Origin: Neolecta irregularis DAH-3
Taxonomy: Eukaryota
Length of the DNA stretch: 41,744 bases
Direction: 5' to 3'
Assembly: GCA_001929475.1 (NCBI GenBank)
Contig: LXFE01000417.1
Location: forward strand, 1 to 41,744
The translations under genes and the position numbers were made by a program. The notes beneath the pieces were generated by a model, which was given only the letters and a program-made list of their open reading frames with translations, was not told the DNA's origin and searched no databases. Of the stretch, positions 1-40,133 are shown in pieces. The first letter of the stretch is position 1. Every line of letters starts with the position of its first letter.

Positions 1-1096
1 CTCATTTCTGAGTGGAACTATTGCCGGAACAGTATCGATCTTGTATCTTCATGCAGCGCGACCCGGCAAGAGTACCACTGATCTAACTCTATTTACCTTG
101 GTCAGAGCAATCGACGTCTTGTTTCATCTCAACGACACCCTGGTATTTGTATTCGCTTGTAGCATTATTATGTATGCATACTTCTATTCGCCAGAGAAAC
201 TTCCTCCGTCATACAATTCGTGGATTAACAAAATGAGTACTGTTGATCCAAGAATCAAAGTCATGTTCAAGAAGCTTCATGATAAGAAGATACAATTTGG
301 TCAACCGTCAAGCGACCGGTCGCTTGAAGACGTCTCTTTTGATTTGGGTCTTGATCCAAAGATGGGGAGCATTGAAGAAAATGACGCCTTGCCGTGTCAA
401 GTTTTCCACTCTAATATTTCCGGTTCTTGCAAAGTACATATTGCTTATCGGTGGCTAAAAGGATTCAAATCCTCCATAGCGGTATCCTTGATCCTACCCT
501 TTTCTTTACCTGACACGTAGATTTATGTTCCCCTTTCCCTTATGCTTGCCCTACGGGATCCAACTACGAAAAGCTTTAAGCGAGCATTGACGTCCGCCAT
601 ACGATCTTCTGCCTTTCTTGCCACTTTTATCTCAAATCTGTGGTATAGGATCCTCTTATGTCTTTATACCAATAAAATCTTAGGTTGGGTGTTTGTGCAA
701 CACGCTCAATAATCGGTCCCAAACTATTTCCTAATGTCAACCAAAATACGTATGATGGAATGATTGGTAATCCACTGCTAGGAAATCAGTCCACTTATTA
801 ATAGGTCCAACGATTGGGTCTTTTTTATCTGGATGGAGCATATTAATAGAAACCCCCAAAAGAAGAGGTGAACTTGCTTTGTTCGGTATTCCTTTACATT
901 CTACTGCCATTAACGTCAAGTCGTACCGAAAGCCTTAACGGTAGTATTGCCCAAATCAATCCAGCAACATCGTATCATCGAAACAGTCATATTCGGATTA
1001 AGCTCCGGTGTGATCATTCGATCGTTAATAGACGGAAAAGGTCGAAAAGTAAGGGGCATTTTCGGTAAAACGTTACACTGGATAATGAATGCCTAA
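1..1096 (+). CDS. TMEM135/PXMP4-like integral membrane protein, 5'-truncated by the window edge; 4 GT-AG introns
   Basis: The spliced frame gives TTDLTLFTLVRAIDV, IMYAYFYSPEKLPPSYNSWI, PCQVFH, AIRSSAFLATFI and GWSILIETPKRRGELALF, which are motifs of the fungal TMEM135 family. First intron 482-520; stop TAA 1094-1096. Confidence 0.75.
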
Positions 1097-1703
1097 AAGA
1101 CAAAAATGTAGATTTCAACTATGCATAAGATACTACATTCAATCTTGTTTCTTCATATTGCATTCAAGACAGTTGTAAAAGTCCATAATGATCACGACAA
1201 TGAGAGCCTGAGTTGTTACCTTTGCCAAACAAGAGTAAATATTACAGAATATTGGAGATATCCCAATACTTTCTCGGTATGAACTTCTTTTGGAACAATC
1301 CAAATATTGCACTGATAAATATACATATTATACTCCAAAGGAAATGTAATCGAGGGATGAAATTGCAGCCAAACGATCGATGGAGCAGTCTAACTTTTCC
1401 GAGTAGAAGGAATACGATCGTCTCGATCTCATATAATTTGGAAACCCATTCATTTGAGGTGTTTCCATCGCAGATCTAAATGAAGATATGGCGATACGAC
1501 GTATAGGTGAGTACTAAACTGCGGACTGTCTCTTTGCAGATTCCCGTGACTTTTTTTCCAAAGGTTACCGACCGACCAGAACCTCCTACTTTCCATTTTC
1601 CATTCACACAATCCCCCACTTTAGAAAAAGTCCCCTAGCACAACGCACACACATTCCCCCTAAATCTTCTAGTCTTAATAGACACATTACTCAAAAAGTT
1701 CCC

Positions 1704-2885
1704 ATGTCTGAAGCTACAGCGTCGAAGCGACCCGCCAATGACGACCTTCAAAATGACGCCAAACGGCAAAACTTTGAAGGAGATGAATCCTCCTGGGTCA
1801 GCCTTCGTGCAATTCTCTCTGGACGAGAAGCCTCTGTCGTGATTGGGACCGGCGGTGATAACGTCGCAAGGATTCGCCAGTTGGCTGCAGCCCGGATTTC
1901 GGTGTCGGATAACCTCAAAGGCGCCATTGATCGAGTATTAACATGCAGCGGAACACCAGAGAATGTTGCAAAGGTGTCCATAATATAGATTAATGGCAAA
2001 TATTTACAAGCTAGGCGTTCGGATTGATGGTTCGAACACTGAATGACGAATCTCTGGAAGCAAGTTCCAACGAGACAAGTAAGTCATTTACCCTGCGTCT
2101 GGCGGTTTCAGATTACTACATGGGAAGCGTGATAGGTAAAGCGGGTTCTCGTATCAAAGAACTCCAAGAAGTGTCGGGCGCCCGAATCACGGCTTCAGAT
2201 GGGTGTCTGCCATTGAGCACTGAAAGAACTGTTGTTATCGCAGGTGTAGCAGATGCTATCCACATCGCCGTATTTCATCTTGGAAAGACAGTTCGCGATT
2301 TTGCGGAAAAGTTCACCGTTGCGCTGACTGTTCCCTATAATCCACTGCCTACTTGGGGTATATACGGCCATTGGGACACATACGGCAAAAATCGGGCTAT
2401 GCAGGCTAATATCATGAGTCCCGCAAACCCATACGGTATTCCAATGGGTACGAATATGGGGCAAATGGCTGCATATGGCCAATTAGATCCGAGTATCGCT
2501 ATCGCGCAACAGCAGTTTCAGCAGCCGCAGACTCAAGGACAAGTGCAGGCTCGACCCGGCCCGGCAGCTCAACCCGGTCAACCAATCACGCAACAAATTT
2601 ATATCCCTAATGATATGGTTGGTGCTATCATCGGAAAAGGCGGCGCCAAGATCAACGAAATCCGACAGGAATGCTCTACTTTTGAGACGAATGCTAACCA
2701 ACAGATGTCTGGTTCTCATATAAAAATTAATGAGCCTTCTGAACAAGGAAATGAACGGCTTGTTACTATTACAGGAACCCAAGAATGCAACCAAATGGCT
2801 TTGTAAGAGAATCTATTGGTTAAAACAACTGACTCTCAGATATATGCTCTACTCACGTTTGGAAAGCGAGAAACACCGTATGTGA
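1704..2885 (+). CDS. rnc1: Triple KH-domain RNA-binding protein (Rnc1/Pbp2/hnRNP K-like); 3 introns
   Basis: Three GxxG KH motifs (VIGTGG, VIGKAG, IIGKGG) and C-terminus ALYMLYSRLESEKHRM*. Introns 1974-2014, 2669-2704 (GA-AG) and a third starting near 2803. Confidence 0.9.
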
Positions 2886-3377
2886 GAGCTCGATACCCGC
2901 TTGATTTCGACCGTCTTTTGTAACGAGTTCTCTGTTAGTTAGATGGAAACGTATGCCCAATAGATTATCACGTTAAACCGTCCATTGATTGACAACGTCA
3001 CATCAGCTATTTGTCCTTGTTTTGGATGTCATCCGGATAGTCTGCTCTTTAGCACTGGATCTAATTTAGAAAACCTCGTATCAAATATCTCAAGTCTTCA
3101 TTCCCCTCTCAATGGGCATACCCTTCAGTCTTTATCGGAAGCCTGGCCCTTCAAGACCTTCAGCGGCACCGTTAAACGATCACTAAAGTCCAGCTCAAGC
3201 ATGGAAATTCTTTCTTCCTTGAAACGATACTTTTCAATCGAAAATCAACAGAAACTTTCAGGATCATCTAGTTCTCAAAAGCTATTTCCGATATCACTAG
3301 GAGACTTTTGCAGGCAGAAAAGATCCTTGTTTATCTAGAAACATTCATAAATTCAAGTATCGAACGGCGTCGAAAAG

Positions 3378-4376
3378 ATGATCGGTTTGATAAGGCGTTG
3401 TAAAGATAAGCGTCGAGTGGAGTATATAAAGCACTGGATGAAACGTATCGAAAAGCTCTTTGACGAGATACGAAAGGAACGCACATATAAGTTGCTACGG
3501 GACACTCGCCATCTGTTATCTTTTGTTTTAAAAACAGAGGTACGTATATTAGTGTTATTTGAGCTAAATAACAGCTTCTTGGCGACGTCCTATGTTCAGA
3601 CTGCCCTTGGAGAAAACAAGGTCATCTTTGATGGTATGTCTCTGCCATCCCCCGACTCTAAATTTTCGAGGCCGGCACATTGCGTGGTGCAGCAAAAAGT
3701 TACCTTTTGGCACTGAAATTGCCTTTGAAACCACCATCAGTGGTTCTGATCCGAAAACCGCTACTGAAAGGGACCGGCTGACGGTGAAAATTGCCTACTC
3801 CTCACAAGTAAACCTTGAATTCATCCACCAATTCCTCCTCAAGCGATATCGAAAGGATGGACAAGTTCCTCAAGGTAATATTCTGATCAACTGCTGGCCA
3901 ATACCAACTACCCAGGGCTTATGGCACTCAACAACCTTTTGCCTCAAACCCCCACCCTCAAATTTTTCACCATGGGTAGTTCTAAGAATTTTTACAAAGA
4001 GCACAATGCAGTGCCTCTCACTGGAGCTCTCCAAGCCTGGAGAGGCATTTTTCAATCACTTCGACCTTCACAAGGCAACATAATCTTTTTGTTCTCTGAT
4101 ACTTATTTGATAGGTTTCCTCACTGTAAACGTTGATGTCGCCACTACTGTCGCCTGGCAGGGTGACCTATCTCTTGTTGATATGGTATGTAAGCATTCAA
4201 ATATAACTGTTCTATACAATATTGGCAATTCTGCAAGGCAACGATCAGGCAAAGAAGTTTCTGTTGATTTCTTTCTTTGCCTTTACTCCTTTCAAAATAC
4301 GGAACTGTATAATAGAATCAAGGGATCTTGTGATATAGACCTTGAAGTTGCGTACCAAGTTGCTCCGACAAGATAA
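3378..4376 (+). pseudogene. Truncated Argonaute (N-domain and linker-1 only; no PAZ/MID/PIWI); gene fragment or chimeric short ORF
   Basis: Splicing out 3634-3670, 3875-3915 and 4075-4113 gives VIFDGRHIAWCSKKLP...QGLMALNNLL...LTGALQAWRGIFQSLRPSQGFLTVNVDVATT, which matches the Argonaute N and ArgoL1 motifs. Recognisable similarity stops near 4205, and the DOP1 stop follows at 4486. Confidence 0.8.
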
Positions 4377-4485: not shown

Positions 4486-7400
4486 CTAAACTTGATTCCG
4501 TGCAAACAAATCCTGATAAAGCCCTTCTTCACAAGCATCTATATCTGGCAATTGCATTGCATAAGTTGCCTCGTATGCAAGAATACTGAGACGATTGAGA
4601 TATGGCTTCAGTTGTTCAAGTTCTGTGATATTCTTACCAACTAGCAACGGTTTTCTTCTAGCCGTCGTTACTTGCGATGAAGCTGAATTTGACTAGAGTT
4701 GGACTAGTATACTAAAAGGTCACACGTACCTCAGTACTGGGAAGAAGATAATTCGTCGTATTTGAAACTCCCAATCTATAAGAAAGTCTATCAATCCAGG
4801 CATTTGGTTCGGACGTTGGCATTCTAAATATTGCGTCCATTGTATCTGTTATGAAGATCCATTCGTGCCTGGTAATGAGCAAGTAAGGCCAAAAAAACCC
4901 TACATCTGAAAGTCTTCCGGAGAAAGAACTAAAATCAGATCCAGAAGCTTACACGCTTCGAAGAGACTCTTGCTATGGTCTCTTTCCTGTATCGCAGCTT
5001 CTTCGACCATATACGAAAGCATCATCTGGAGATCGGTAAAGATGATTGGCCAAAACGACTGTAAATGGACTGAGGAAAATCGGAGAAGTATTGTTTGGAA
5101 TAATAAATAGATTTCACCTCGAATACTGTCTGATGGGGTACTGCGCACCACTTCGTTAACCTTTTCTTTAATTGTTGGAAGGTATATGAGAAACTCATCG
5201 GTCTCACAACAGAGCAATGCAAACTCGAGACGTCGGAAATTAAGTTGTCGTTGGAGGGTTTCTTGTTCTGCAGTCCCGAATAGCCCAGCTTGGTTGCTTG
5301 CGCCGAGACGGGCAACAAGTTCTACAACACGCTCCTTCTCGGCGGTATACAACTGCTTTCCAAAAGGTAGCCATAAACGAGCGCCTTGGGGTGTCATGGT
5401 AAAGAAGGCCCGTTCGTTGATCAAGTCGAAAACTTCTTTCCGCCACACTTTGTAGGTTCCCGGTATACATGTTACTAATCGGAAGATCTCGACTATGCGC
5501 GGATCTACGTTTGTTGGACTTGCATTAGTACAAGCAGAAAAAGGACAATGCAAGTTTCTGCTACGCAGCATCGGAGAAACAAGAAGATTGAGAATCTGGG
5601 TACATATGTACTGTATACGATCCGGCTCGCCAACAACACTGTGAATATTCTCAATGACAACTTCGATAAGTTGTTGCAAGACATCATCGCCTGGGGGTGC
5701 CGGTGATTTCGATGGTGGAGTTGCAAGACCGAACTCGAGGACAGCTCGTGCTTCGAACTGTCAAAAGACGGATAAAACACGAGACAAACCTGTTCTCTTT
5801 GACAGAGAATCACGTCTTGATTTTTCAGAATTCGCAGCAGTATATGCTATAGGAAGAGAAAATAGTACTATACGGTTATATAAATCCTAAAGTTTAGCTC
5901 AGTGACAGTATTATAGCAAATACTGTGAATTCCTTTCTGACTTTCTTTTGTTCTTGCAATGGCGACATCACCAATATTCTCCCGGAAACAGTCACTAACC
6001 GTAGAAGACTTGCAATGGAAGAACGATACACAGGCAATGCATTACCAACATCTCTTAAGAATTTTGTCACTTCGTTCCAATATATAACGATAGCACTTTC
6101 ATCGAGAGTCCGCATAAACTCGGTCATGAAGTCAATAACGAGAGGTTCAGAGCTAGAAGTTGGTTACAGAAATAAACTGGAACGTACAGCTCAACGGCCG
6201 GCGACTTCCTGCTGTTTAATAAGTCGATGGCCGTCCGATTATTTGACCGACTCGTGATGCAGCTGAGAAGCGTCAGTATCGGTTGCTTTGGATCGAAATC
6301 CGAAATATTCTGGATACAACTAAAGATACGAGGGTAGATTACTGCCTGACCATGTTAATTAATAACACTTTCCAAGCCCTACGTTTATTCCAATTCGAGA
6401 CCAGATTTCAATGAAAATTTCCAAGGTCCAAGTTGATTCGATCAAATACATTTGCGTCAGTAGTCTTTTACTTCGACTTGACAGCCGTGAAATGATAGTA
6501 GCTAGAGAACTCGAGGTAGCAGGTTTCATCTTAATCCTTATTTGTTCTGTCCATGCCCAGATATCAAAGCCTAATTTCTGAATATCTTGGTGACATAGGG
6601 AAATAGTGAACCGATTCTTTCAATTAGATCATATTGTGATAAGAGATACTTACATTGGGTCCCGCTCCTGAAGTTGCTATAGGTTCTGATGAAAAAACAC
6701 CAGAAAGAACATTCCCGAAAAAAGATCCGCTTTCTTGAACCTTCCGTTCCTCCAACAGCTTCTCCTCTATCTGCAATGCTTCATGGCCTTTTGGAATCAG
6801 GCGTTCCAAACCATCCATGAACAGGACAATATCAGGTATCGTGGCGGATAATACTGAATGGACATCATCATCTGTCGGCCGGGACGAAAGTTCTTGGAAC
6901 GCTATTCGAATCTCCTGGCAAATACAGGCGATCAAAATGAACGAAACCTGGAAGACATTCATGTCGAAGATATGGAAACAACTTGACATAAATCCAATCC
7001 ATTCCGCTAGGTAGGGACGGCTATCCTTGGAAGAAAATCCGACCGTAAAACACCGGAGAATGAGAGCTGCAAGCTCTGACATAGGTTTTGTGTCCTGCTC
7101 AGTAGCTGAATATGAATCGCTGAGGCTGGGCGAAGCAGAATTCAAACTCAGTTGCTTTTTAAGTAGACCGTGAGCAGATTGAAGGATATATGGCTGCAAA
7201 GATGGTGAGGTTCCGGTAGCACTTTGCAAAAGCTTCTGCATCAGGACATTTAGTAATTCAGTATCTGTAACAGAATTGTCTTCGGTAGCAGAAATAAGAC
7301 GATTGAGGTTGTTTAAGCATGCCAGCTGGAGGGGAACTAGTGTTTGTATTCTGTTTAGGTCATCAGGGTCTGATATCTGACATTGTACAATCCTAATATT

Positions 7401-10383
7401 TAGCAAAGGTGTCGAGGCGAGGAGTTATCTTGATAACACTGCAAGGAGCAGTTGGGAATAGGTCAATCCGCTTGTCTTGAAGTCACCTTGAGCTTAATTT
7501 ATGGAACCACGGAAATCATACGCAATAAAAGAAGCTCGACACGGTCATCGGTGAAAGAAAACATTTCTGCGGCCAGATAACTTAATAATTTTGTTTGTCC
7601 AACTTCCAGAATAGCTTCAAGCGCTTGAATTAGGGTCAGGAGATTACTGATATCATCGTCCCGATCAATAATAGAGGCCATAACTTGTATATCCTCAACA
7701 GTAGTTAATGATGGCGACTTCAAGATAGAGGACTGCAAGATTCTCATTAAAATGATGTCCATAAGTCTCCGGGTTAGAGTCTGTCGACAAGTGCAAGTAC
7801 AATACCTGCTCGTTGAAGCACCGAGAGCTTTGAGCCAACGCTTTGCACAAAGTCGAGCTGTCGGATGATTTGATTTGAATGTCTCCAAGACTTCATATAC
7901 TGGCCCGGCAAGAACATCCGAAAACCTTTTTTCGTTCACTTGCTGTCAGAAGGCAAAAGGAATGAGTTTTATTATTTACCACTCAGATTCCACAATACAG
8001 AAAATGATTGAATTGCTAGAGTCTTCATATTATCGTCAGTGTTTGAGAGGAAATATGATATCCGCGACCGACATATTTCGACACCGAGAATATCGACAAT
8101 TTTCCAGAAGAATGTTGTGCCTTCCAAGTGATATCGTGGATTCCGCGGTTCAAGAAGGGCCCAAGTCTAGATTTAATCCGTAATCAAACAGTGAAGAATG
8201 GTACCTTGTCAACAATCAGGTTTTGGTTATCCTTGCGTAAGTCCGATGCTGCGAAAGCTTGCATAGAGCGAAACCTCATGATTGTAGTGATTGTTGTAGA
8301 TATCATGGCAAAACTTTCCATTTTTTGGTCCCGCAGGACATCCAATAGACTCTGCACGATAGATCGAGCACTCTGAAGCTCAATGCGTGTATAAGAACCC
8401 AAAACATCTGCCAGGAATTTCAAGATATGCTCCACTGATTCTAGTTCCTTTTTCAAGATGGTTATTGTCGTCACAACTAAAATATCTCTGACCTGCGAGT
8501 TAGGAAGAGGCATGACAAGAGTCTTTGATGTATAGGCGCTCTGTTCTTGCCCAGCTTTGAAATATCGTGCAATATACTCTGCGAGCTGCCTGGTATCAGT
8601 GAATGTAACATCTGGTGATTCCAAAGTAAAGACTCGTGCAGGTATAAGCTGTAGCAAAGATACTGAAAGTTGAAAACTTTTGATTCCAATCTCTGAGGCA
8701 GCTTTTGTTCGGGAATGTGTCACTAACAGATCGAGAAGTGTCATCGGTATCAAAGATGTGACCATCTCCTCTTCTGCAATATCAAAAGTCGAAATGATAA
8801 GACTGATCAAATCGAAATTATTAATTTGCCCTTCGAATGCTTTATGAATAAGGGTAGAGATGCATCCCCATATTAAAGGCGCTTCGATCCCATTAAACAT
8901 CATCTTTGCGCTTCGTTGTACTTCTTCATATTGATCAAACAATTGCTTTCCCTCGAGATTCACTCGCACTGTTTGAAGATATTGAATGCAGGGCAAGAAC
9001 ATAATCGAGATAACTTTCCCGCCTACTTCCCAGTAATCCAACAAGGCAAGACAAATTCGAAAAGGCCTAACCAGATCTCGTGTATTTGAAAGCTCAGGGT
9101 CGAGTATTTCGTTCAGTCCGCTTAGTAAATATTGCAATCCGAACTTTTGAAAGTGTTCAGGATCGACATGTTCCTCTTCCGGTCCCAAAAACCATCTCCA
9201 TAGTCTCCGATTGAGAGAAAGATCACGGCGAAGAACAACCAATGTAGCGCTTAAAACTAAACGTTGGAGGTCATTTTTTGGGATGGTTCTTCAACATCAA
9301 TATTTCATATTATAAAGCCATTACTCTTGAAGAAGCGGAGATGCAAGCGGTACATTCGTCACCAACAGATCTAAAAATCCTCGTTGAACCAAGAGCTCCG
9401 AATCAGATAAGCCAGCACAAAATGCCCGAGTCATGAGCGTTGGATCGGGTTTGATAACTGAAGACTCTGCATCTACAAATTCAGCGGGATATAAAGTGAA
9501 ACCGGAACCATCAACTGTGGTTGAAAGTTTTGGCATCTTTCTGGACAAGTATACTAAAGCACCTTGTCTTCGACCACTCGCACTGATAATAGTAAGCCAA
9601 ATATTTTGCCAAAAGTATGCATCATCGTCCAGTGCTGTTCTAATGCCATCAACACAGGCGAACGTTCTTTCGAAAAATTCTCCTGTTTCTTCCTCAATAG
9701 CTGGAAGAAGTGCCAGTAACAAAGACTTAGCACATGGTCGCAGGTATGTTCCGAGAGCGATGTAATGTTGTTCAAAGAGAGTAAGCAGATGAGGCTATTC
9801 GTGAGTTTTTTGAGGAGAAATTAGATACGAAACCCTGACGCTGATAGAAGCATATGTAAATAAAGGAACCAGACCGGGTGTCCAGATATGCAATTCGCGT
9901 CCTAGGTAATCCCTCTATAAGACATTAGATTTGTTTCCATGATAAATTTACTCCCAGCTGTCTGGATATGAAATCATATACTTCTAAAGTCCTCTGGTGA
10001 ACTCCCGACGGTAACGATGGATCCAGGCATTGAGCAAGTCTTCCAGCGACTTGAACTTTATACGGAATATGTCGAAATGCCGAGCCGAGATGTAATGCCT
10101 AGTGCCTTAAATATGATTGACCCGCCCTGGATACCTTGAGAAGTCTCGAGAGGAAAGATATGTAATCTGCCCATTCCTGAGTAACCTCAAAGGTAGACAA
10201 ACTTCTATTTATCGCTAGAGAGAACTTTTTGTATTTTGCATCTTTATTCGGATCTGAACGCTCTGTAACAATCACTAATGGTCTCGTGGAGAGGGTACCT
10301 CTTGTTGGCGATATTGATCTAGAATCTGCGGGAAACAGAGCTGACAAAGTCAACGGCGAGTCAAGGTTTAGTTTCTCTGCCAT
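4486..10383 (-). CDS. DOP1: Dopey/DOP1 endosome-Golgi trafficking protein; about 17 introns
   Basis: Dopey_N motifs QEWADYISFLSRLLK, RLAQCLDPSLPSGVHQRTLEVY, LVQRGFLDLL and VVLRRDLSLNRRLWRW. C-terminal motifs ACKLLDL and DFQMHEWIFITDT. Stop at 4486-4488. Confidence 0.93.
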
Positions 10384-22924: not shown

Positions 22925-23086
22925 TTCAGCAATCGTAGCAGTCGTTGTATCTCGTTTCTTTAAATGGAATGGATTCCTGTTCGAACTTGATAATAACGTT
23001 GACGAAAAATGGATTTCCCGCATTTTCCAATTGTGAAGTTGAACAAGACCCCTTTCGTCTACTGCCAAAAAAACTTTATTCAGATT

Positions 23087-26300: not shown

Positions 26301-27894
26301 AAGTTGTTGCATTTTGTGAGAATAAAATCGATTGTCGAAGGAAACAAGTCCTCGAATATTTCGGCGAGACTTTCAGCCCAGCGAAATGTCGAAAAACTTG
26401 CGATAATTGTTCGTCAAACACTGCATGGATAGCCAAAAATGTTACCGATTTAGCGGTTGCAGCGATAAAACTGGTTCAAGTGATCAATAGGAAGACTACA
26501 TTATTGTATTGTGTTGACGTCTTTCGCGGGAGTAAAGCGAGTAAGATTACCAATGCTGGGCATAATCTGCTAGAACAGCATGGTTTTGGGCAAGACGCCA
26601 GTAAAACTGATATCGAGAGATTGTTCAAGCGATTGGTTAGTGAAGAAGCATTGAAGGAAGTGTGCGAAACAAACAAGATGGGATTCGTTAATACCTATGT
26701 TGCGGTATAGATTTGTTAATACTGAGACTGATTTTCAGATTGGCAAGAAAGCCAACGAGTTCCTTCGAGGTAACAAACAGCTACAGATGGACTTTGCCGA
26801 AGGAGCCGGTGGTAAAAAGAAATCAAAAACTATGACACCTGCTGTTTCAAATCATCGAAGGTTTAATAGCCTTCAAATTTCACGTCCCGATGATGATTTT
26901 GACGATTTTGAAGTAACATCGCGTCCAAGGTCCTTGAAGCGTAAAGAGGAAAGATGTTTTCTTGGAGAGCCGGTCCGTCCAAACCAGCAATATTCACATC
27001 TCACAGAATACGAGATCGACGTATCCAATCGGTGTTATGATCATGTAGTGGTTAGGCGAGATGCGGTATGTTATTTCACAAAAAGTATCACTAATTACTG
27101 CAGATCTGCAAAGAACAAGACGTTCGGCCATCCACTGTGCTTTCAAATACTGCGCTTCAGAGTATTTCAGTGCAGCTACCGACTAGTAAGTCATCTTGCT
27201 TCTTCTCTGTTGATATAACAAGCAAAACAACAATGGCTTAAGTGTCAAGATGTCTCCGAAAGACAATACGATCTATATCACGAAAAATTTGACCTGGTAC
27301 TGGATAATTTCATAACCGAGAAACGCGAAAATCTGAGGTATCGTTTTTGATTTCTTCCATAAACTAATTTTAAGTGATGCTCAGATGCCCCCACAAAAGC
27401 AAAATAACATACGTCAAGTGGATTACGAGTCTGCAGCTCCCGGTGGTGATGAAAGCGATTATGAGGATAATCTCGATGACGTCGAGTACGAAACTGTCGC
27501 TGCTCCAAATGGAACGACATCTCACCATTTTGCTCGATATAGCGCTCCATCTCAAAATAAATCCGTCTGCGATTTACGTAAAGATTAATCCGGTATCAAA
27601 CTTGCTGACCCCAAAGTTCGAAGGCAATTTTTACATAATGCGGAAAGGTCTGGTAGTTCTCAAAGCGAAGGTCCATTATCCTCTCGCCGTGGAGGAGTAT
27701 CGCAAGGTCGGTCTAGTCGCGGCAGTCGGAAGAAGTCTACCAAACGTTCTTTCTCGAGCAGCGGTGAACCAAAACCGGGATATCGGAAATCCAGTGGTGG
27801 AGTCAGAAAATCATCCCGGGGAGGATCTTCCTCTCGTGGAAGAACCACTGGAGGTTCGAGTAGTACGACAAATTCCATAATTCGACCAATGTGA
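23345..27894 (+). CDS. SGS1: RecQ family DNA helicase Sgs1/Rqh1; about 9 introns
   Basis: N-terminal PKNNLQLQISW; helicase motifs MPTGGGKSLCYQLP, DEAHCVSQWGHDFRPDY, ATIAFGMGIDK and YYQETGRAGRDG; RQC Zn motif CRR...CRKTCDNC; an HRDC-like segment; a Ser/Arg/Gly-rich tail ending IIRPM*. Confidence 0.95.
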
Positions 27895-28245: not shown

Positions 28246-30237
28246 ATGATTTCTCCTTTTTCATACAGTGTTCTAGAAGCATCGGATCCGCCGAATGCTC
28301 GAATAAACTATCAAGTTATTTCACCATCCAGCCTCACTTCATCCCCTGTTCCTCCAGAAGATAGACCATCCCCCCCAAGATGGAATACCTACGAATTCTA
28401 CTTTTATTTTATTATTTTCTTGATATGTGTTCCGTTGATGCTAAAGGCGGGATATAATCTTTCAACAGGTAAAATGCTGCTTGTTTAATTTTCGAACGCT
28501 CAAGGATTTAGAAAGTCATCCAAATTACCATCTGTTCGAGCCTTTTCTTCAACCTGGATGGATGTTTGGACGCAAAGTGGTATGTTGAAACATGGACGAA
28601 AGCTAAGTCTTTGTCAGGATAATAGCGATATACAATATCGATCATTCCGAGAACAAATTCCCATGCTCTTTGGGGTAGTGATTCTTCACACATTTCTTCG
28701 CCATGGATTTAACAAGCTTACAGTCCCATCATCGACCTCTGATCAAGTAAAATATCGGGTACTCTTCGACGTCTTTTTCTCCATGATATTTCTGTTCGTT
28801 CTGCACGGTTTTAGTTTGCTGAAAATTGTGGGAATAATTGGAACCAATTTCCTTATTGCAAAGAGTTGTGGAGGGCATGTTTCGGGTCCTGTGCTGACCT
28901 GGATTATTGATATCGGTTTCTTATTTCTAGCGGAATGGTATGATGGTTTTCTGTTTAAAAGTGTAGGATTACCTATACTGGTATACACATTATCTGGGTT
29001 GGATATTGATAGTCCTGCAGGATTCATTCAGTGGAATGTCGTTTCGCTGGCAAATCTATTTCAATATCACCATGCTTCGCTTAATCTCTTTCAACATGGA
29101 TTACTTTTGGTCCCAAAGAGATGCCACTACCTTGGAGGCATACTTTATTTAAACCAACTTATTTGTCCTGATGGTCTAGAAGAACCTTCTCGATCAAGAA
29201 CAGATTTCTGAGAGAACTCGAATCGCTAGTTCGTGCTTACCATCTGAATATACTTTCTTGAATTTCCTTGCATATGCCACTTATACGCCGTTATACGTCG
29301 CTGGACCGATCATGACATTTAATAATTGGATTTCTCAGGCATTTTTTGAGATAAAAGAAAGCTTCTCTAACATGGCCAGTTGAAATATCCCTCCTCAACC
29401 TTGACAATCCAACGAACAGTTCTCTACAGCATTCGTCTTGGTACTAGTCTCCTATGTATGGAGACCCTGTTGCATTTTTACTATGTCGTCGCTATATCAA
29501 AAGCACAAGCCTGGAGTAATGACTCCCCTTTCGAAATTAGTATGATTGGCTACTACAACTTGGTGATCATATGGCTCAAGGTACAAACCTCTAGACGAAA
29601 AATTTACATGATAACAAAGCTCTTAATTCCTTGGCGTTTCTTTCGGCTATGGGCAATGATTGACAAAATCGAAGCACCAGAGAATATGCTGCGTTGTATG
29701 AGCAATAGTTACTCTGCCAGTGGTTTCTGGAGATCGTGGCACCGAAGTTTTAACCGGTGGATACTTCGGTATCTTTTAGGTTATTCTTTGAGAAATTGAC
29801 TTTCAAGATATATCTATATACCACTAGGAGGTTCAAAGCGGTCCATCCCAAATACGTTCATTGTCTTCACCTTTGTAGCATTATGGCACGATTTGTCATT
29901 CAAACTACTAACATGGGGATGGCTAATCGCTCTGTTCATTATTCCTGAGCTCGTTGCGACCGCTCTATTTCCCGCTAAAATATGGGCAGAAATTCCGTGG
30001 TACCGTCATCTCTGCGCGGTAGGAGCAGTATTAAACCTGGTCATAATGATGGTGGCAAATCTCATTGGATTTTGTCTCGGAGTTGATGGTATGAAAAGCA
30101 TGCTGAAGGAAATATTATCTAGTTGGAGAGGAATAGGATTTTTCGTAAGTGCTCTTGGCGCACTTTTTGTTGGGGTTCAGGTAATGTTTGAATATCGAGA
30201 AGAGGAGAAGCGGAAAGGGATATATTTGAAGTGTTGA
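28246..30237 (+). CDS. GUP1: MBOAT O-acyltransferase Gup1; 7 introns (two GC-AG)
   Basis: Motifs [85 protein letters not shown] and [10 protein letters not shown]. Confidence 0.93.
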
Positions 30238-30449: not shown

Positions 30450-33049
30450 ATGAGCCCTATTCCGGATAGACAGTCTGTGTTTGATCAGATATTCAAGAGA
30501 CCGAAAGCTGGAGTAACACTAAACGCAGAAGAAAACAACATTTGCTGGATGAGTCTTACTAGATGGTTGACTAATTCGCTTTCTAATCATTCTCGGTGTA
30601 CTTTAGAGACCGATGTTGAAATTAGAGAGAAGTTATCATCAATCAGGGAAGCTGGTCTGGAAAGTCGCCTGAGTGCTTGGTATATTGGTAATTCGAAGAA
30701 CACAACTTAGCTGGTTGATCTTTTATAGACCAAGTGCGACGCGATTTTATAAAGGAGCATTCCTCGAGACTTCTAAATAGGGCGGTATGGATGTTTGATT
30801 GGGCTCTAGTTTATAAGATAGGTCCTATCAGACGATTTACAGTGCTTTATCATGGACCTTGCCTCAATTTATGAGAGTTACGAGCGCCCATTGGTACTAC
30901 TTGATACTGGGTAACTTTTATGCCCGAAGAGTCCTGAAATTACAGGGAAAAGAACATCGAGAAACTTCAATTATCGTTGCATGCACTATTCCAATATCAT
31001 ATTGATATTCCACGCCTGGCGCAAAGGATAAAATTATGGGTGTCGACTACAGTGACAGAATGGTCCGAAGAATCTATTACCGATGACACATTCCTAGAAA
31101 GCAGCCGTACTCTGGGGAAAGTTGGATTGGGTCGCCTCTTTCAAGGCATCGTTGCCGAGGTTATAGCTTCGAGTATGAAGGATTATATTTCAGAAAACTT
31201 TGCAAATGAATGGGAGGCCAGTGTGCTGCCACAAATGACGGATTGGATTTCTCAGAAAGTTTTCACATTCGTGCACCAAGTTTGCCAAAATCAGGATGAC
31301 AATCTTCGAGAAATTCTAGAAGGACTTGCGAAAAGGTCATTAGTAGATCTTAGGTATCGTCAGTTCCCAGATTGCTTCGCTGAGGTATAGGACATCTGAA
31401 TTATTCGATATTATAAAGGACTTTCCTTATTCAGAAAGCGCTATCGATGATTTGAAAGTGCCTAAGTAGCTCAACTCTTCACTGATAATCAAGCGATGCG
31501 TGAGTAATACACCACAAAGGACTCAGATAGTCCAGACCTTCCAGGAAGCGTATGCTGCTCAACAGGCTCTGCCTAATTGTCATAGCTGTCGCAAGAGAAT
31601 GCTTCATCCTGGTGCCCACACATCAGATATCATCTCTCAATATATCTCAACGATGAAAGCCTTTCGGATCCTTGAGCCACATGGAGTACTTCTAGATAAG
31701 GTTGCGCGACCGATACGCCGATACCTAAGGCTAGTGCTTTTCCTGATGTTTATCTGATATGTAGAGAGCGAGAGGACACCATTCGATGCATAATGACGGG
31801 CCTTGTCGGCGAAGATTCTGATTTAGCAGACGAGCTCATGCAAGAAACCGCTGAAGTTGATATCGACGACTTTGATGATATGAACTGGATTCCAGATCCT
31901 GTTGATGCTGGTCCTGATTATAGAAAAGACAATGGAGATGTGATTGCCGCTTTGGTATCAATTTACGAAAATACAGAAGTATTTGTGAAAGAATTACAAA
32001 TTCTGCTGGCAGATCGACTATTGGCCTTGGTAGATTACGATATGGATAGAGAGGTATATTTATCTAAATAGACGACAACTGAAAGCATAGATTCGTAACA
32101 TAGAATTGCTCAAACTACGTTTCGGTGAAGCGAATCTTCAGATGTGCGATATTATGTTGAAAGATATTGCAGATTCGAAGCGTCTGGATGATCAGATTCA
32201 CGGAACTAAGTTTGAAGAGATAAAAGCCTCTTTTTCTCCGAATTTTGCTAACTGGTAGTCCATTGCCCAAGGGTTTATCTTATCAAGGCTGTTCTGGCCC
32301 GCGTTTCGAACTGAAAATATAATTCTGCCGTCTGAATTAAATTTGTATGTTTCTCAAGAAGTGCTCTTCTGATCGAAAGGGAACTGCGAAAGTATGCTAG
32401 AGCCTTTGAAGAATTAAAGCCATCCCGAAAACTCGAAGTTCTTCCTCATCTTGGATGGGTGGACATTGAACTCGATTTGGAAGATCGGCACTTGGCACTT
32501 TCGGTTACACCTGCTCAAGCTACTGTTATTTATCAATTTCTTGAAACCGATACAAATACACTAGACTCTCTTCTTGAATTGTTTAACAACGATCGTGCAT
32601 CCACTCTCCGGGCTATATTGTATTGGGTAAGAATTGGGGTTTTGAAAGAAACATCAAAAGATCAATATTTTCTCCTGGAGAAGGCCGAGTCTTTCGCACC
32701 AGGTACCCTGAAACCGGATAGAGCTCATGGTTAGGTGCTGCATCAGTTGTTGAACAGCCGGTTTCTGCAATTCAATCAGCTGTCGATATTTCTGCCTCTG
32801 AGATGCAAATGTACTGGTATATACGTATCTATTCAGGATGTTGACTAACCTGGCAGGTCTTATATTACGAATATGCTGAAGAACATGGGTGCACAACCAG
32901 CAGAACGTATACAGTCAATTCTTACAATGCTCGTTCCGCCGCCGAATCTCTATTCAAAAAGTTTGAATGAGCTTCAAGCATTCTTGGAAGAGATGGTCAA
33001 TGAGGAGAAATTGGAGTTCGTTACCGGAAATTATAAGCTAAAAAAGTGA
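30450..33049 (+). CDS. APC2: Anaphase-promoting complex cullin-like subunit Apc2; about 12 introns
   Basis: Motifs ELFDIIKDFP, RMLHPGAHTSDII, RRYLREREDTIR, WIPDPVDAGP, ELLKLRFGE...CDIMLKDIADSKR, ILSRLFWP and YWSYITNMLKN. Confidence 0.93.
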
Positions 33050-33490: not shown

Positions 33491-34518
33491 ATGGTTAGCG
33501 CGCGGTTAAACGTTCCAAATCCAGGATTTGATTTCGATAATTACCAGAGAAACGCTCTGCTAGCTGTAAAAGGACAGAAACCGCCAAAAACCACTTCGAC
33601 TGGAACGACCATCGTAGGATGCTTGTACAAAGCCGATGACGGGTATATGTTCTTCGAATCTCCTGTTTATGAGATAGTTCAACTGGGGTATGTATTGGAG
33701 CAGATACAAGGGCTACATCTGGACCAATAGTGGCTGATCCTAATTGTGAGAAAATTCATAAAATTTCTGCGAACATTTGGTCCATAACCGCTTGCAATAT
33801 TACTGTTTCTTATGCTTTGTAGGTGTTGCGGAGCCGGAACTGCCGCGGACACAGAATTTACGACAAATTTGATCAACTCGCAGCTAGAGTTACATAGTTT
33901 ATGGACTGGTCGGCGTCCGAGAGTAGTCACAGCATTAACTATGCTGAAACAGCATTTATTCAAACACCAGGGACACATTGGAGCATATTTGGTACTTGGC
34001 GGTATCGTTTGTTTAGAGTAGAGTGAAATAACTTACACGATAGGTGTCGATCCTACCGGAGCACATCTGTTCACTGTCCATGCACATGGATCAACGGACA
34101 AACTGCCATTTGTATGGCCATGCTCACTTCCTTTCTAAATCTGTAGGTTACAATGGGATCTGGCTCCCTAGCGGCGATCTCTGTATTCGAAACCAGATGG
34201 GTTAAAGATTTGTCTCGAATTGATGCTATGGAACTGGTCAAAGATGCAATTGAAGCGGGTATCTTCAACGATCTCGGTTCAGGGAGCAACTGTGATGTCT
34301 GTGTGATTGAAAAGGACAAGGTATGGTGCAGCTTTTTGCAGCTTCTTCACATTCTCTAGACTCAGATGTACAGACATTACAGTGAACCGAATGAGCGCCA
34401 ACCGAAACAACAAAGTTATAAATTTCCTCATGGGACAACAGCCATTCTAAAGAGCGATATCTCCAAGTTTGTTACAATTGAAGATGTCGCAGGAGAAGAT
34501 ATGGAGGTCGATACTTAG
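33491..34518 (+). CDS. PUP1: 20S proteasome beta2 subunit (trypsin-like); 5 introns
   Basis: Propeptide [10 protein letters not shown], catalytic TSTG|TTIVG, and motifs [31 protein letters not shown] and [13 protein letters not shown]. Confidence 0.96.
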
Positions 34519-34969: not shown

Positions 34970-35799
34970 ATGGCCGTTTTCAAGAAGTTCTGGCAATGGC
35001 TGCTCTCGTGGTTTTGGCAGGCAAGCAAATCTTATAGCATGACTCTGACTTTCAAAGACTGAAATGGAGGTATAGCAAACCTGACTATGAGATTTCTTTG
35101 TACAGAAGCTGATGCAACTCGATTTTAGATCACCATCATTGGTCTTCAGAACAGCGGGAAGACCACCTTGCTTAATCTTTTGTCGGATGGTGACTTTATT
35201 AGCGATACTATTCGTATTTTCATAATGAAGGCTGTTTGCTGATAACTTTAGCGTACTTGCTGCTTCTGTGGCCGTGTTTTACTATCTAGCACCGTTGGCT
35301 TTAATTTTCGCAAGGTAATACGTGGTAATGTGACTCTAAAATGGTGCTGTTGTCTATATCTTCCAGAGAAACTGATTCATCAGTTGGGATCTTGGAGGAC
35401 AAGCGCGATTTCGAAGCATGTGGGATCGATATTGTCGAGGGATAAATGCTATAGTGTAAGCAGTCCTAATTTTTCGTATCCGTGATAACATGCAGCTTTG
35501 TGATCGATTCTTCTGACCACGATAAGCTGGCTACCTCTGCTGCAGAGCTCCACAATCTTCTCTCAAAGCCCGCGCTTGATCTCATTCCGCTTCTCGTTTT
35601 AGCGAATAAAAGGGATATGCCTAAAGCCCTAACCGTTGATGAAGTCATTGAGCAGATGTACCTCAATTATCTTGAAAGTGGAGCTAAACGGCATAGTCGT
35701 CTTGATTCGATTAAGGGTCGCGAGGTCAGTTGTTACTCAATTTCAGCTAAGGATAACTTAAATATCGAGCCCATCATAAGTTGGCTTGTTGCTCGGTAG
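34970..35799 (+). CDS. ARL8: Arf-like GTPase Arl8; 7 introns, including a GC-AG intron, a 12-nt exon and a 1-nt exon
   Basis: Spliced [25 protein letters not shown]...DTIPTVGFN...[20 protein letters not shown]...[10 protein letters not shown]...[11 protein letters not shown], with no Gly2, which is the Arl8 signature. Confidence 0.93.
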
Positions 35800-36084: not shown

Positions 36085-36825
36085 TCAGATTTGATGATCT
36101 ATCTTCAACTTATTTTGGGTAAAATCAGACAACATCCATGCAATCAATCCCCCCAAAAAATATCCAATATATGCTCCTGTAATGATTGTAACAGGCCATT
36201 TCTTTGAATAAGCGATATATGTCAGAGGATAAGAAAATACCTGCCACTCTCTATTCCAATCCAGGGGTATAGGGAATGCACCCAACCAGGCTCCCGTCAT
36301 GACACAAATGCTCTGTGTGAATACTCTGGCATTTCCGTGATACATCAACGCATATACCTTTTGCCATTCTCCGTTGTCCAGCTGGATTATACACGCAAGT
36401 GGAAATACAGCAAGAAAGGCGATATTTAATGACAGCATTGTTGTTTCGGAAAATACTTGAAAGGCAGGCACACCAAACAGAACCATTAAAAGGTGTATCA
36501 CGAAGGAGCCGGCGAGTGTAACAAATGTTGCAAATGTTATGGGCTTCATGTGAGATAGAACAAGCAGAAAAACGCATACCATGGCGTTATTACTGATTGA
36601 ATACTTGAGTTTTACTTTGCCGGTCGATCTTTTGCTCAAAGGAAGACATAAAATTGCATATGTTGTTTGTAGACAGTATACCGATGGTAAAAGCGGACTC
36701 AGTAGAGTTGATGAAGGCGACAAAAGCAGTTTTTTCCACGCGGCGACCAGAAATACAAGAGGAAACACAGCATTGGTTAGATGGATAAATCTATCTGTGA
36801 ATGCGGAGAATGGTGTGGTTTTCAT
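36085..36825 (-). CDS. GPI11: GPI biosynthesis protein PIG-F/Gpi11; two in-frame stopless introns
   Basis: Motifs LMVLFGVP and GAWLGAFPIPLDWNREWQ|KWPVT. The 36-nt and 39-nt GT-AG inserts read through in frame. The start codon is uncertain. Confidence 0.9.
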   Translation of the reverse strand: MKTTPFSAFTDRFIHLTNAVFPLVFLVAAWKKLLLSPSSTLLSPLLPSVYCLQTTYAILCLPLSKRSTGKVKLKYSISNNAMVCVFLLVLSHMKPITFATFVTLAGSFVIHLLMVLFGVPAFQVFSETTMLSLNIAFLAVFPLACIIQLDNGEWQKVYALMYHGNARVFTQSICVMTGAWLGAFPIPLDWNREWQVFSYPLTYIAYSKKWPVTIITGAYIGYFLGGLIAWMLSDFTQNKLKIDHQI

Positions 36826-36947
36826 GGCATCAAATTTGACATCAACTCCTCATTTTTGTCATTTTTGTTCCACCGAGATGGTCACTTCTTTGCGTTGGGT
36901 ATCTTGCATATTAACGAATAATTTACTAATATTAGATAATCAAAAGA

Positions 36948-37666
36948 ATGTTACCTTTTACTGGAGTATTTCCTAGGACTGCACTAATTGCTGTTTCACA
37001 AAAAGACGAAAACCCATCGCCAAATTTGACCCACATATTTACCAAATCTTCAAAATTATCAATCTACGATCCACCCGAGCCGACCTTGGTTCTTGAAGAA
37101 CTTCCTCCGATGTTGCTGCAAACTCACTTTCGAATTGGGCGAGAATGGGTCAACAAAAAGTACCGTCATACTCGTTGTGGAATCGACAATCTAGTCGATC
37201 GTTGGATTTCGCTGGAAGGGAAAATTGAAAAGACAGCCAACGAAGTCAAGCCGATGAATGGAGAAAAAGTCATGCCTGGTGGTATGTATGTTGTGATCTC
37301 AGGGATGGCGGGGTCTATATTATCACGGAATCGTACGTTCAGTTTATTTCTTAGAGCTACTGAATACTAGGGTTATTTCCGGTTCGGTTAGCTATGCCAA
37401 TTCTCACTTCAATTGGCGCGGCGATATACTTTTTGCCGCAAACTTCTCGAAACATTGGAGCTCTCCTCTTGAAAATCGAACGCAAGATACCGAAATTGGA
37501 GAAAGTGCACAATCAAATTCATAATCAACTTCTAGAAGCAGTAGAGTATGCTGAACGGACGAAAGAGCAGGGACAAAGAACTATTGAGGAGAGTGTGTAT
37601 AGAAGCCGAAAGTTTGTCGAGGCTAGCACTGGATTGCCTGTTGCTCAGGATAGAACTGAGGTATGA
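36948..37666 (+). CDS. MIC26: MICOS subunit Mic26/Mic27 (apolipoprotein O family); 1 intron
   Basis: Motifs KLSIYD, EKVMPGGMYVVISGMAGSILSRNR and YFLPQTSRNIG. Confidence 0.8.
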
Positions 37667-38214
37667 TTTACTTTCAATTGGTTACTGAACCCAAGTAAAT
37701 AGTTACTGATAAAGTAATTGGCTACTGAATCTAATGTAACACCCTTTCATAATAAATTTGATCTGTCGAGTCTGTCATATAGCTTTGTAGTAAAAGGCGT
37801 ATGACTGGTCGACATGATCAGTAACTAGACATTGGACCGCCTTTCTCTTGAGCTGCTACTTCAAATATCATATAGTGTGGCAACCTACTGTTCTAATTGA
37901 CAATTTAAGAAAACTTTTGTGGAAATCTGTTGACACGAGAGATTCCATTTTGAAAGCCTCTTCATTATGTCAGTTGACTAATCTCTTTCATAGAATTATG
38001 TGCATTACTATCTCTATCTATTGGTCTATAGATCTCTGGATATTCTAATTCTATTCAAGATGAAAATTGAATTCATTTCAATGTTTTCGGTTTTGTGGGG
38101 AGGCCACTTGATAGTTTTACTTTGTCACCGCCATCCTCCAAAGAGTTATAGGCATCAACAGAACCCTTTGGATTTCCAACTGTCTTTCAGGTAAAAAGAT
38201 TTCCTTTTACTCAT

Positions 38215-40133
38215 ATGGAGTTGTCACTCGGTCGCTTGACGCGATCTTCCTCCTTGATGTCTGTTACTTCCCTGGCCAGACAGTCATTTTCCACCCAGTT
38301 GTCCCGGTTGACTTCGCTATCTCTCCCATCAACTGAATATCTGCGTTCCAAGATATCTTCGCTGCAAACTCCGGAAGCGATCGTCTCACTTCGGGCATCC
38401 GGGCAGGATATTTTGAAATGGATAACCGTGGCTCAGGCTGTGCTCTCCGGATTGGACGCCGAAGACGATGTTGAATGGGCTGCAAGCGGAAAGGATTCAC
38501 TGGGAAAAGTAGAACTTGCAGTGACAAATTTTGGAGAGATAATCAAGACTTTTATTGAATTATCCGATGAGGTCAGCAGTCGTGATGATCCCAACCCTAC
38601 GAGCCTCGCTGAGCTGGTCCGAGGAATTGATTCAATTACCGATGCATGGGCAAAAGTCAAATCGACTTTGGATAATGTGAAAGAACAGGTTGAAATTTCC
38701 TTAGAATGGGTGGAAAGCATGCAGATCATTAATGATATCACAACCGAACTCGACGAGTGCCAAACCATCGCCTTTGAAATCGAGGAAGAACGACATAAAG
38801 CGCCAAAAGTGCTCGGCGAAGAAGGAGTTTGTCAAGAAAAGCCTTCTTTACCCAACTGGGGTCACCGAAGATCGAACACTTTCGACGAATCAAATATGTC
38901 TATGGTGAAATTAGATGGACGGATGCAACCACTACGCGCGAGTCTCGACTTTCTAAAACCTCGACTAGTCAGCTTTGCAAAAAGAGCTGATCTCGCGTTT
39001 CCTAGCGCAATATTAGAGTTGAACGAAAAGAGAAACCATCTGGAGAATCAGTGGAACAAATTGAAGAGCAATTATACGAGTTTGAAAAAGGAATTGGAAG
39101 ATGATCATTGGGTAGCTAGTTTTAAAAGTACTGCTGCACAAGTATATTCAAAGCTCTTTTACAAAGGTTGATTTTCCAGGCTAATCATATGATGGATTCG
39201 ATAGAACGATCATTACGAAGGGTGCAATCATATCTCTTGACTGGAGCCTCTAAAGATGCGGAGAAATGTGTCAAGACATACTATGCTAAACGTTCAGGAT
39301 ACGGTATAGACAAAACCCATGTATATTGTCTGACTGACAAAGGACCCCCAATTGAACGTGTCTTGACGATGTTTGAAAGCCATCTTCAGTCTCGTGGCAC
39401 ACTCAACGGCGTCATTCTTCGTACGAAATCCGTAATACAGAATCGTTGGGCGGAATTATCGAAAGAAATGGATCTTCTTGAACACCAGGTGGACTCTACC
39501 TTTTCGGACGGTATTAGTAGTATTAGTCTAAACGATATATCGGATTCAGGAAGCACCGCTCCAAGTGAACCATCTCGAGCGATTACCCCCAAAAGAATGT
39601 CGAATGCTTTACCGCCAAGCGTATTACCCCAAATGAAAAGTCCGACTCGAATTCCGTTGTCGACAAAACGGATAAGTTTGGCTCCTCAACATGCTCTTAA
39701 TACTCCAGCAAGGAACAATCGAGCTGTATCTCCAATTCCACCAAGAACCCTTCGTCGTCTGACTTCGTTTTCTTCGATGGGGAAGATTACGCCTCCTAAA
39801 CCATTGTGGAATTCATCCATCAAAGCAGACGATGTTTTTACAACTTTCTTGCCGAGCCCCGTTCACTCGCCTTCTTCGCAGACATTTCATGCTCGAATTT
39901 CATCAAATCCACCTTGCACAAACCATTTCAATGGTTCTGCAAAATCTTCAGATGGACTTAAGAGTATCGACGAAGTTATCAATCGCCGAGCAAGTTCAAT
40001 TCCCCGACCTCTTTCAGATATTCTTAGAGTGTCAAGACCACGGAGAGAGAGCGCAATGCATATACCAGCCTGCATTAAAAGCCCATTAAGCGAGAGCGGA
40101 GCGAATGGTAGGCCTAAACCAGCATGGAGATAA
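38215..40133 (+). CDS. KAR9: Karyogamy/microtubule-cortex protein Kar9-like; at least 2 introns, start possibly further upstream
   Basis: LSGLDAEDDVEWAASGK and MQPLRASLDFLKPRL match fungal KAR9-domain proteins. There is a Ser/Pro/Arg-rich tail with SxIP-like motifs (TRIP, SSIP) ending RPKPAWR*. Confidence 0.8.

Follow-up and report, generated by a model that had tools for sequence, protein, structure and literature searches.

Near-uniform introns of about 38 nucleotides with reduced splice signals on a contig of Neolecta irregularis

The 41,744-bp stretch of DNA analysed here (the window) covers an entire nuclear contig of the ascomycete Neolecta irregularis DAH-3 (LXFE01000417.1), with a GC content of 40-46% along its whole length and about 17 genes, 15 of which contain introns. 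Our curated set comprises 100 coding introns, the first at 482-520 and the last at 39304-39342, and one candidate in a 5' untranslated region (5'UTR; 1507-1539). The coding introns are very short and nearly uniform, 96 of them measuring 32-43 nucleotides (nt), with a mean of 38.2 nt, a standard deviation (s.d.) of 3.6 nt and a sole intron above 47 nt, of 59 nt. An earlier note, made from the letters of this DNA, had claimed about 100 introns between 482 and 39342, almost all of 32-43 nt, and these figures held up, the distribution on this contig being narrow and not broad. By their termini, branch adenosine and an open frame collinear with homologues the introns are U2-type (major) spliceosomal introns, but they do not carry the canonical fungal donor (GTRNGT, with about 90% G at +5). 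We consider it probable that they are ordinary introns near minimum size, with reduced signals, that are read by intron definition. The genome was described as 14.5 megabases with 44% GC and 5,546 genes, 99.4% of them with RNAseq support, in the accessible portion of its publication (PMC5309816).

Intron set and anatomy

Intron boundaries rest on public gene models, reading frame and homology, and the curated set combines the public models with curated results of our own parse and with homology-based fixes in the KH-domain, GUP1-like and Arl8-like genes. Three public proteins (P0121, P0242 and P0258) could be placed letter for letter on the contig, which gave exact intron coordinates, and an open frame at 8187-9290 on the reverse strand (368 residues) was 100% identical to the public 'Protein dopey [Neolecta irregularis DAH-3]'. 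Together the three models hold 46 introns, every one with GT-AG ends; 45 measure 32-47 nt. The DOP1 model P0121 requires 17 (35-45 nt), P0258, a 729-residue representative, requires 11 (32-44 nt), and the valyl-tRNA ligase (ValRS) model P0242 requires 18, namely 17 of 33-47 nt and one of 116 nt that was excluded from every intron statistic. The 45 short introns average 37.7 nt (s.d. 3.3), with 42 within 32-43 nt; 38 begin with GTA, 14 have G at +5, six have the full GTRNGT and 26 follow an exonic G at -1. Best non-self protein matches reached just 64% identity (RecQ) and 37% (DOP1), and a close relative is therefore seemingly absent from the protein set.

The parse was a two-strand Viterbi procedure that scored codon log-odds, start and stop codons and introns. 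Under a flat length prior of 20-200 nt, 29 of its 72 predicted introns fell within 32-43 nt, against 4.8 expected from a uniform distribution; because the flat-prior parse and the public models show the same peak, it was not imposed by the model. In the trained parse, length, branch site and acceptor were learnt from annotated introns, with an optional donor matrix, and cross-validation recovered 14-16 of 17, 13-16 of 18 and 9-10 of 11 annotated introns, although it still joins neighbouring genes and overlooks in-frame introns free of stop codons. At a model score of at least 8, 58 real GT-AG introns compared with 5 decoys wholly within sense exons, 11 that overlapped real introns, 15 on the antisense strand and 8 between genes. 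Counting GT-AG pairs that join open reading frames was dropped as an intron finder for its excessive noise, parses with flat or capped length priors fused adjacent genes via bogus introns of 100-200 nt and chose several wrong donors, and allowing seven additional donor dinucleotides brought in many low-scoring chance introns. Some AT-AG introns competing with annotated ones (7393-7428 and 32220-32258) received good scores and were not adopted. Intron density was 97 in 28,298 nt of coding sequence over 14 genes, or 3.4 per kilobase (kb), a lower bound because the parse is blind to in-frame stop-free introns and the regions upstream of 3395 and beyond 40133 yielded no firm gene structure; two in-frame introns emerged only as gaps of exactly 12 and 13 residues relative to solved structures.

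Homology supported many of the boundaries independently of the parse. In DOP1, at least 23 of 30 homologues were gap-free at 10 of the 17 junctions, the other seven lying in variable regions, and in ValRS at least 14 of 15 were gap-free at 7 of 12 junctions, with 11 of 15 at one further; the five junctions of the gene upstream of ValRS had no homologue in the alignment set. RecQ junctions were gap-free at three of nine (24244, 24428 and 26705, in 21-25 of 25 homologues), with the remaining six in variable regions. The 17 homology-supported junctions of DOP1 and ValRS (10 and 7, with intron lengths of 34-45 nt) have A at +3 in 14 cases, G at +5 in five and GTRNGT in three, so that misplaced boundaries do not account for the weak donor. 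All 14 curated genes that were checked proved open after splicing, except the joined ValRS span, in which the 116-nt piece was kept in.

Among the 100 coding introns, donors are GT in 95, GC in four and GA in one, all acceptors are AG, and lengths divide evenly by three (34, 30 and 36 introns with remainders 0, 1 and 2). Conservation at the donor is confined to its start: A occupies +3 in 85 of 100 and G precedes the cut in 62 of 98, whereas +5 (A27 C24 G27 T22) has background composition (chi-square p=0.29; for G, 27/100 against a background of 21%, p=0.097). Position +4 is T-rich and G-poor (A22 C26 G6 T46) and +6 is T in 47 of 100, a weak preference for T extending over +4, +6 and +7 and skipping +5; GTRNGT occurs in 12 of 100. 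The view in the earlier note that donors are highly variable beyond GT is thus borne out at +5 and by the rarity of GTRNGT, but not at +3; by fungal standards the donor is truly minimal. Five of the seven donors it listed are in our set (GTCCCT at 11975, GTTTTT at 12952, GTAGCC at 12267, GTACCT, and GTGCAG at 20710), and for the other two, GTTCAG (14718) and GTGCCT (31458), the public models shift the donor by 6-8 nt to a GTA (14724 and 31466, respectively). Its proposal of exonic AG as a donor cue is not supported, as AG precedes only 29 of 98 donors.

Branch sites are loose, as had also been claimed: the best 5-mer fits CTRAY in 39, YTRAY in 56 and YTRAN in 73 of 100, and 17 introns have a branch site below 3 bits. 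In 84 of 99 introns the branch A is 6-10 nt away from the 3' end; at acceptor position -3, a pyrimidine is found in 71 of 98 and G in four, and introns are richer in T than exons (35% vs 27%). Expressed as information, the donor holds 5.8 bits (2.1 beyond GT), the acceptor 4.6 (0.6 beyond AG) and the branch site 4.3 (7-mer matrix), and length contributes about 5.4 bits against a uniform distribution over 20-500 nt. For a given acceptor, a second GT is absent from the stretch 32-43 nt upstream in 65 of 100 introns, and a second GTA in 92; competing sites per intron number 0.39 against 0.57 expected from composition for GT and 0.08 against 0.14 for GTA. The variance of total length (8.6) is smaller than that of the donor-to-branch (20.5) and branch-to-acceptor (16.0) distances, which correlate at -0.77, a contrast inflated by misassigned branch sites.

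U12-type introns combine AT-AC or GT-AG termini with a TCCTTAAC-like branch site and the long donor (A/G)TATCCTT. We rejected this class here, as no AT-AC intron was found and GTATCC opens two of the 100 introns (482 and 10099), about as often as position frequencies predict. A longer donor-like match is present in 482-520 only, where the donor start GTATCCTT resembles a minor-spliceosome donor, probably by chance, since this 39-nt intron is otherwise like its neighbours. Forms related to the U12-type motifs are quoted in a survey of 61 species (PMC3033335). Rfam searches of the contig at gathering thresholds gave no matches and no small nuclear RNA gene.

Non-GT donors

The five non-GT donors (four GC, one GA) are fewer than the roughly eight first claimed, and all five have A at +3. 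GC donors were permitted in the parse at a penalty, and three poor solutions (a 139-nt intron, a 41-nt intron of score 2.0 and a 47-nt intron of score 2.5) then gave way to short, well-scoring GC-AG introns, with one in-frame GC-AG intron added at 4075-4113. Overall, three or four of the five can be counted as well supported; taken singly, two candidates are well supported by homology and frame. The predicted GA-AG intron of the KH gene (2669-2704) corresponds to a gap of exactly 12 residues in alignments to hnRNP K KH3 structures, the KH3 chains of PCBP1 and PCBP2 being likewise 12 residues shorter across the matched span, and has no frame-preserving GT-AG alternative. For the predicted GC-AG intron of the Arl8-like gene (35021-35057), the sole GT-AG alternative deletes almost all of exon 1. 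The putative GC-AG intron 29138-29179 of the GUP1-like gene is supported by frame, as the flanking frames leave no GT-AG alternative; its neighbour 29339-29379 competes with a GT-AG intron at 29379-29419 and is ambiguous. Support for 4075-4113 (13 codons) of the Argonaute-like gene as a GC-AG intron is confined to length, ArgoL1 aligning 61 residues to 51 profile positions across it.

GC donors elsewhere are usually compensated by a strong consensus; the four here all read GCA, with no strong consensus downstream, and like GC-AG introns elsewhere they keep AG, a branch site and a normal length. In the 61-species survey, GC-AG accounts for 1.3% and AT-AC for 0.1% of 2.46 million introns (PMC3033335), against 4 of 100 here (95% confidence interval 1.1-9.9%; 1.6-11.3% for all five). 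Relative to the surveyed value of about 1.4%, and given our gene models, the excess corresponds to P = 0.052 for four and P = 0.014 for five non-GT donors, so a frequency weakly above the survey is plausible and the excess smaller than first claimed. Most simply, the GC and GA donors would be tolerated variants at +2.

It is possible, though we think it doubtful, that these five segments are not spliced as proposed and instead represent coding insertions that were retained, variants arising from the assembly or between alleles, or pieces of genes in decay. GC-AG pairs scoring at least 8 are common by chance (30 decoys against the four proposed), and the case for GC-AG introns therefore rests on frame and homology and not on score. 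Moreover, the KH and Argonaute-like segments are in-frame and stop-free, hence translatable, the Argonaute-like gene is truncated, possibly a pseudogene, no Pfam family was found for the GUP1-like exon 29021-29137, leaving its frame without such support, and the public models are GT-AG throughout. This last point would be weak evidence if the models came from a finder such as Augustus, which, according to the part of PMC5677156 available to us, does not call GC-AG introns. The exact 12-residue gap in the KH gene relative to three solved KH3 domains, combined with a length at the mode (36 nt) and a branch site that is strong and placed 7 nt from the AG, argues for splicing, as do the Arl8-like and first GUP1-like introns, which are required by frame and have no workable GT-AG alternative.

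Recognition of the introns

Compared with canonical short fungal introns, for which we rely on the accessible portion of PMC5677156, the Neolecta introns share GT-AG termini, a branch site near the 3' end and a non-G base before AG, but their length is much smaller and varies far less. A preference for G at -1 (53% vs 62/98) and for A at +3 (74% vs 85%) is likewise shared, in contrast to +4 A (42-56% vs 22/100), +5 G (90-94% vs 27/100), CTRAY (>90% vs 39/100) and a pyrimidine at -3 (93% vs 71/98). The figures given in that portion are A74 at +3, A42 at +4, G93 at +5 and T66 at +6 with CTRAY above 90% for four Fusarium species, G90 at +5 for pooled Aspergillus, Candida, Cryptococcus, S. pombe and S. 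cerevisiae, G94 at +5 for Neurospora, and 91% as the fungal CTRAY value. Pneumocystis, the other intron-rich lineage of Taphrinomycotina, likewise combines a compact genome with many introns, 4.5-5 per gene in the text available from PMC3531804 and PMC4764891, but its mean intron length is 54-61 nt (PMC3531804) against 38 nt on this contig; over 1211 shared orthologues, Neolecta was counted as intron-rich, with 4202 introns vs 4842-5289 in Pneumocystis, in the section of PMC7940399 we could draw on. The shortest species mean in the 61-species survey is 56 bp (PMC3033335), compared with 38 nt (s.d. 3.6) here. Ciliate introns of about 25 bp (Paramecium and Nyctotherus; PMC5014332, in its available part) similarly form a whole population at minimum length with a very narrow spread, in another lineage and at another length, and unlike theirs the Neolecta lengths are split evenly by three.

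The size of the Neolecta introns looks like a minimum, at which three signals are kept, namely a G|GTA donor, a loose YTRAY-like branch site with its A mostly 6-10 nt from the 3' end, and AG after a non-G base. Most likely, donor, branch site and acceptor would be recognised jointly across one very short intron, the near-fixed spacing supplying information that is absent from the donor motif. Intron length plays a part in how introns are recognised in fungi (Iwata and Gotoh 2011), and here it is worth about as much as the donor; with about 5.4 bits in length and no rival GTA in 92 of 100 introns, a GTA at the right distance is nearly sufficient in information terms. Weak 5' splice sites have been correlated with intron richness (Irimia 2007, as cited elsewhere). 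Retention of A at +3 and G at -1 indicates that base pairing to the first donor positions is kept, which speaks against the reading in the earlier note that gives little weight to U1/U6 pairing; +5, carrying no information, speaks for it. We infer intron definition from this anatomy.

The data also allow a departure that we regard as unlikely, in which the Neolecta spliceosome no longer reads donor positions +4 to +6 via U1 and U6 and sets the 5' cut with a molecular ruler running back from branch site and acceptor, for which U1, U6, U5, Prp8, U1-C, Luc7 or the U6 methylase would have changed to match. A +5 at background level where other fungi have about 90-94% G speaks for it, as do the low variance of total length relative to its parts, itself partly an artefact of misassigned branch sites, and the apparent tolerance of GC and GA donors and of a possible 1-nt exon between abutting introns. 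On the other hand, pairing at the donor start appears to be kept, the non-GT excess is just weakly above the survey on our own gene models, and plain intron definition with minimal introns gives the same statistics. Selection of the 5' site largely by distance, as the earlier note had it, is partly supported by the mere 2.1 bits of the donor beyond GT and by the length information; it is a reasonable hypothesis that is not singled out, ordinary intron definition being simpler and predicting the same. In its specific form, in which +4 to +6 were given up and cutting occurs mainly at a G|GUA whose distance to the branch site is fixed sterically, it is similarly improbable; were it true, C or A tolerated at +2, introns one exonic base apart, 12-nt exons and co-evolved U1, U6 or protein partners would be expected. 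Far less credible still is that manual placement or gene finders got the boundaries wrong and the real junctions are canonical GTRNGT. Two of the seven donors listed in the earlier note, and several donors from our own untrained first parse, disagree with the public models, and some introns have in-frame alternative donors; nevertheless, the gap-free junctions still show +5 G in only 5 of 17 and GTRNGT in 3 of 17, and because another GT within the allowed length window exists in 35 of 100 introns only, most donors cannot be moved without breaking frame or length class.

Several points weigh against ordinary intron definition of minimal introns as the account of this set. The junctions are predicted from models, frame and homology, and the mechanism is proposed on sequence statistics. 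Our parse, with a GTA-favouring donor matrix and a length prior, contributed 55 of the 100 introns, and the public models may stem from a gene finder with biases of its own. Homology does not separate some in-frame alternative boundaries (14683-14718 vs 14683-14724, 31458-31493 vs 31466-31504, and 29339-29379 vs 29379-29419). The count is incomplete, owing to missed in-frame stop-free introns and to the regions upstream of 3395 and at 40133-41744, and the sample is 100 introns of one contig and not the whole genome.

The kind of system is known, and its degree here (a 38-nt mean, no +5 G and a minority of CTRAY, in an ascomycete) is not described in the searchable literature. No paper on Neolecta intron lengths or splice signals was found there, and the word 'intron' is absent from the main text of the genome paper (PMC5309816); supplements to that paper may hold such numbers. 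An ascomycete that lacks a +5 G signal and yet carries introns of about 38 nt at a density above three per kb offers a natural test case for the minimal donor sequence that a spliceosome needs and for intron length substituting for sequence. Genes here will be mis-modelled by any gene finder blind to GC donors, to in-frame introns lacking stops and to micro-exons, as in the ValRS fusion and the Arl8-like gene described below.

Genes of the contig

The genes and the introns assigned to them are collected in Table 1; most of the genes were identified through Pfam matches or named public records. The labels 'GUP1-like', 'APC2-like', 'beta subunit' and 'CENP-K-like' are our own reading of the translations or of a precomputed accession, whereas the Arl8 label is backed by solved ARL8A/B chains as best matches.

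Table 1 Genes of the N. irregularis contig and their introns (non-GT introns are candidates).
Gene	Position	Strand	Introns	Remarks
Gene A, 5'-truncated	2-1096	+	482-520, 643-683, 767-804, 886-920 (35-41 nt, all GTA)	
KH-domain (PCBP/hnRNP K-like)	1507-2886; coding 1704-2886	+	1974-2014 (GTGTCC), 2669-2704 (GAATGC, GA-AG, 36 nt), 2803-2839	Pfam KH_1
Argonaute-like, N and L1 domains only	3395-4376	+	3634-3670, 3875-3915, 4075-4113 (GCAACA, GC-AG, 39 nt)	Pfam ArgoN, ArgoL1
DOP1 (dopey)	4486-10383	-	17, of 35-45 nt, all GT-AG	P0121 exact
Mon1-like	11030-13131	+	11637-11673, 11840-11880, 11975-12008 (GTCCCT), 12267-12302 (GTAGCC), 12597-12633, 12690-12731, 12952-12990 (GTTTTT)	Pfam Fuz_longin_2; open frame to stop in parse
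Valyl-tRNA ligase (ValRS)	13199-16597	-	12	
Gene upstream of ValRS	to 17880	-	5	
584-residue single-exon protein	17998-19749			Present as such in public protein collection
DEAH-type helicase	20357-23023	-	20519-20550, 20710-20744 (GTGCAG), 21122-21162, 21602-21634, 21709-21744, 22300-22335, 22417-22455	Pfam DEAD, Helicase_C; open once spliced
RecQ-family helicase	23345-27894	+	9, of 34-42 nt	Pfam DEAD, Helicase_C, RecQ_Zn_bind, RQC
MBOAT (GUP1-like)	28246-30237	+	28469-28504, 28981-29020, 29138-29179 (GCATAC, GC-AG), 29339-29379 (GCATTT, GC-AG), 29769-29807	Pfam MBOAT on exons 29180-29338, 29380-29766, 29809-30234
Cullin-like (APC2-like)	30450-33049	+	11, of 32-44 nt, all GTA	P0258 exact
Proteasome beta subunit	33491-34518	+	33643-33677, 33780-33822 (GTCCAT), 34002-34043, 34112-34146, 34321-34359	Pfam Proteasome; open spliced frame
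Arl8-like GTPase	34970-35799	+	35021-35057 (GCAAGC, GC-AG, 37 nt), 35070-35128 (59 nt), 35214-35251, 35253-35289, 35344-35383, 35456-35495, 35658-35696	Pfam Arf; 7 introns within 830 nt
PIG-F	36085-36825	-	36202-36240 (candidate)	Pfam PIG-F
ApoO/MICOS-like	36878-37666	+	36899-36935, 37333-37370	Pfam ApoO
KAR9-like	38215-40133	+	39142-39179, 39304-39342	Pfam KAR9 on both flanking frames

An unrelated upstream gene is tied to ValRS in the public model P0242 (1305 residues; 13202-17880, reverse strand) via the 116-nt intron (16572-16687), within which an ATG-started ValRS frame opens at 16597, and the two-gene join is probably an annotation fusion artefact. Short introns number 17 across the two genes (33-47 nt), with GT-AG ends throughout.

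In the Arl8-like gene, the spliced translation is a single open GTPase of 179 residues, and ARL8A/B structures show a 13-residue alignment gap over 35658-35696. A 12-nt exon of four codons (35058-35069) lies between the candidate GC-AG intron and the only long intron of the contig. One exonic C (35252) separates two canonical introns of 38 and 37 nt, and only this two-intron reading restores the frame and the GTPase switch-1, a single 76-nt intron breaking the frame. In stwintrons, as described in the accessible part of the literature, the internal intron sits inside a splice signal of the external one, for example between donor bases 1 and 2; that reading was rejected for 35214-35251 and 35253-35289, since neither breaks the donor, branch site or acceptor of the other.

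For gene A, the trained parse yields a single open frame up to the stop, and no Pfam family was found for 2-517. The 33-nt 5'UTR candidate of the KH gene (1507-1539, forward strand) has a textbook GTGAGT donor and a branch-like site unusually near its 5' end, unlike the coding introns. The Argonaute-like region (2964-4376, forward strand) reaches its stop at 4376, leaving about 110 nt to the 3' end of the oppositely oriented DOP1 and no room for PAZ, MID or PIWI domains, and may represent a truncated gene or a pseudogene; a PDB search with its frame gave no matches. An intron candidate at 3540-3574 (score 12.2), which was not adopted, probably belongs to its 5' part.

The DEAH-type helicase frame runs to a stop near 20358 with no additional intron, and the spliced RecQ frame is stop-free over 1401 residues. 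In the GUP1-like gene, 28580-28617 (score 9.4) was treated as a decoy, on weak grounds. The Cullin match of the APC2-like gene falls under the Pfam cut-off. The PIG-F intron candidate is 39 nt long, in-frame and stop-free, with a model score of 11.8, and the unspliced translation of this gene was not found in the public protein collection. Beyond the KAR9-like gene, 40133-41744 holds overlapping open frames of 100-165 codons on both strands, with no Pfam match and with parse introns that are all low-scoring. GC skew falls from +0.17 to -0.26 between neighbouring 2-kb windows (18001-22000), over the single-exon gene at 17995-19749 and the adjoining region.

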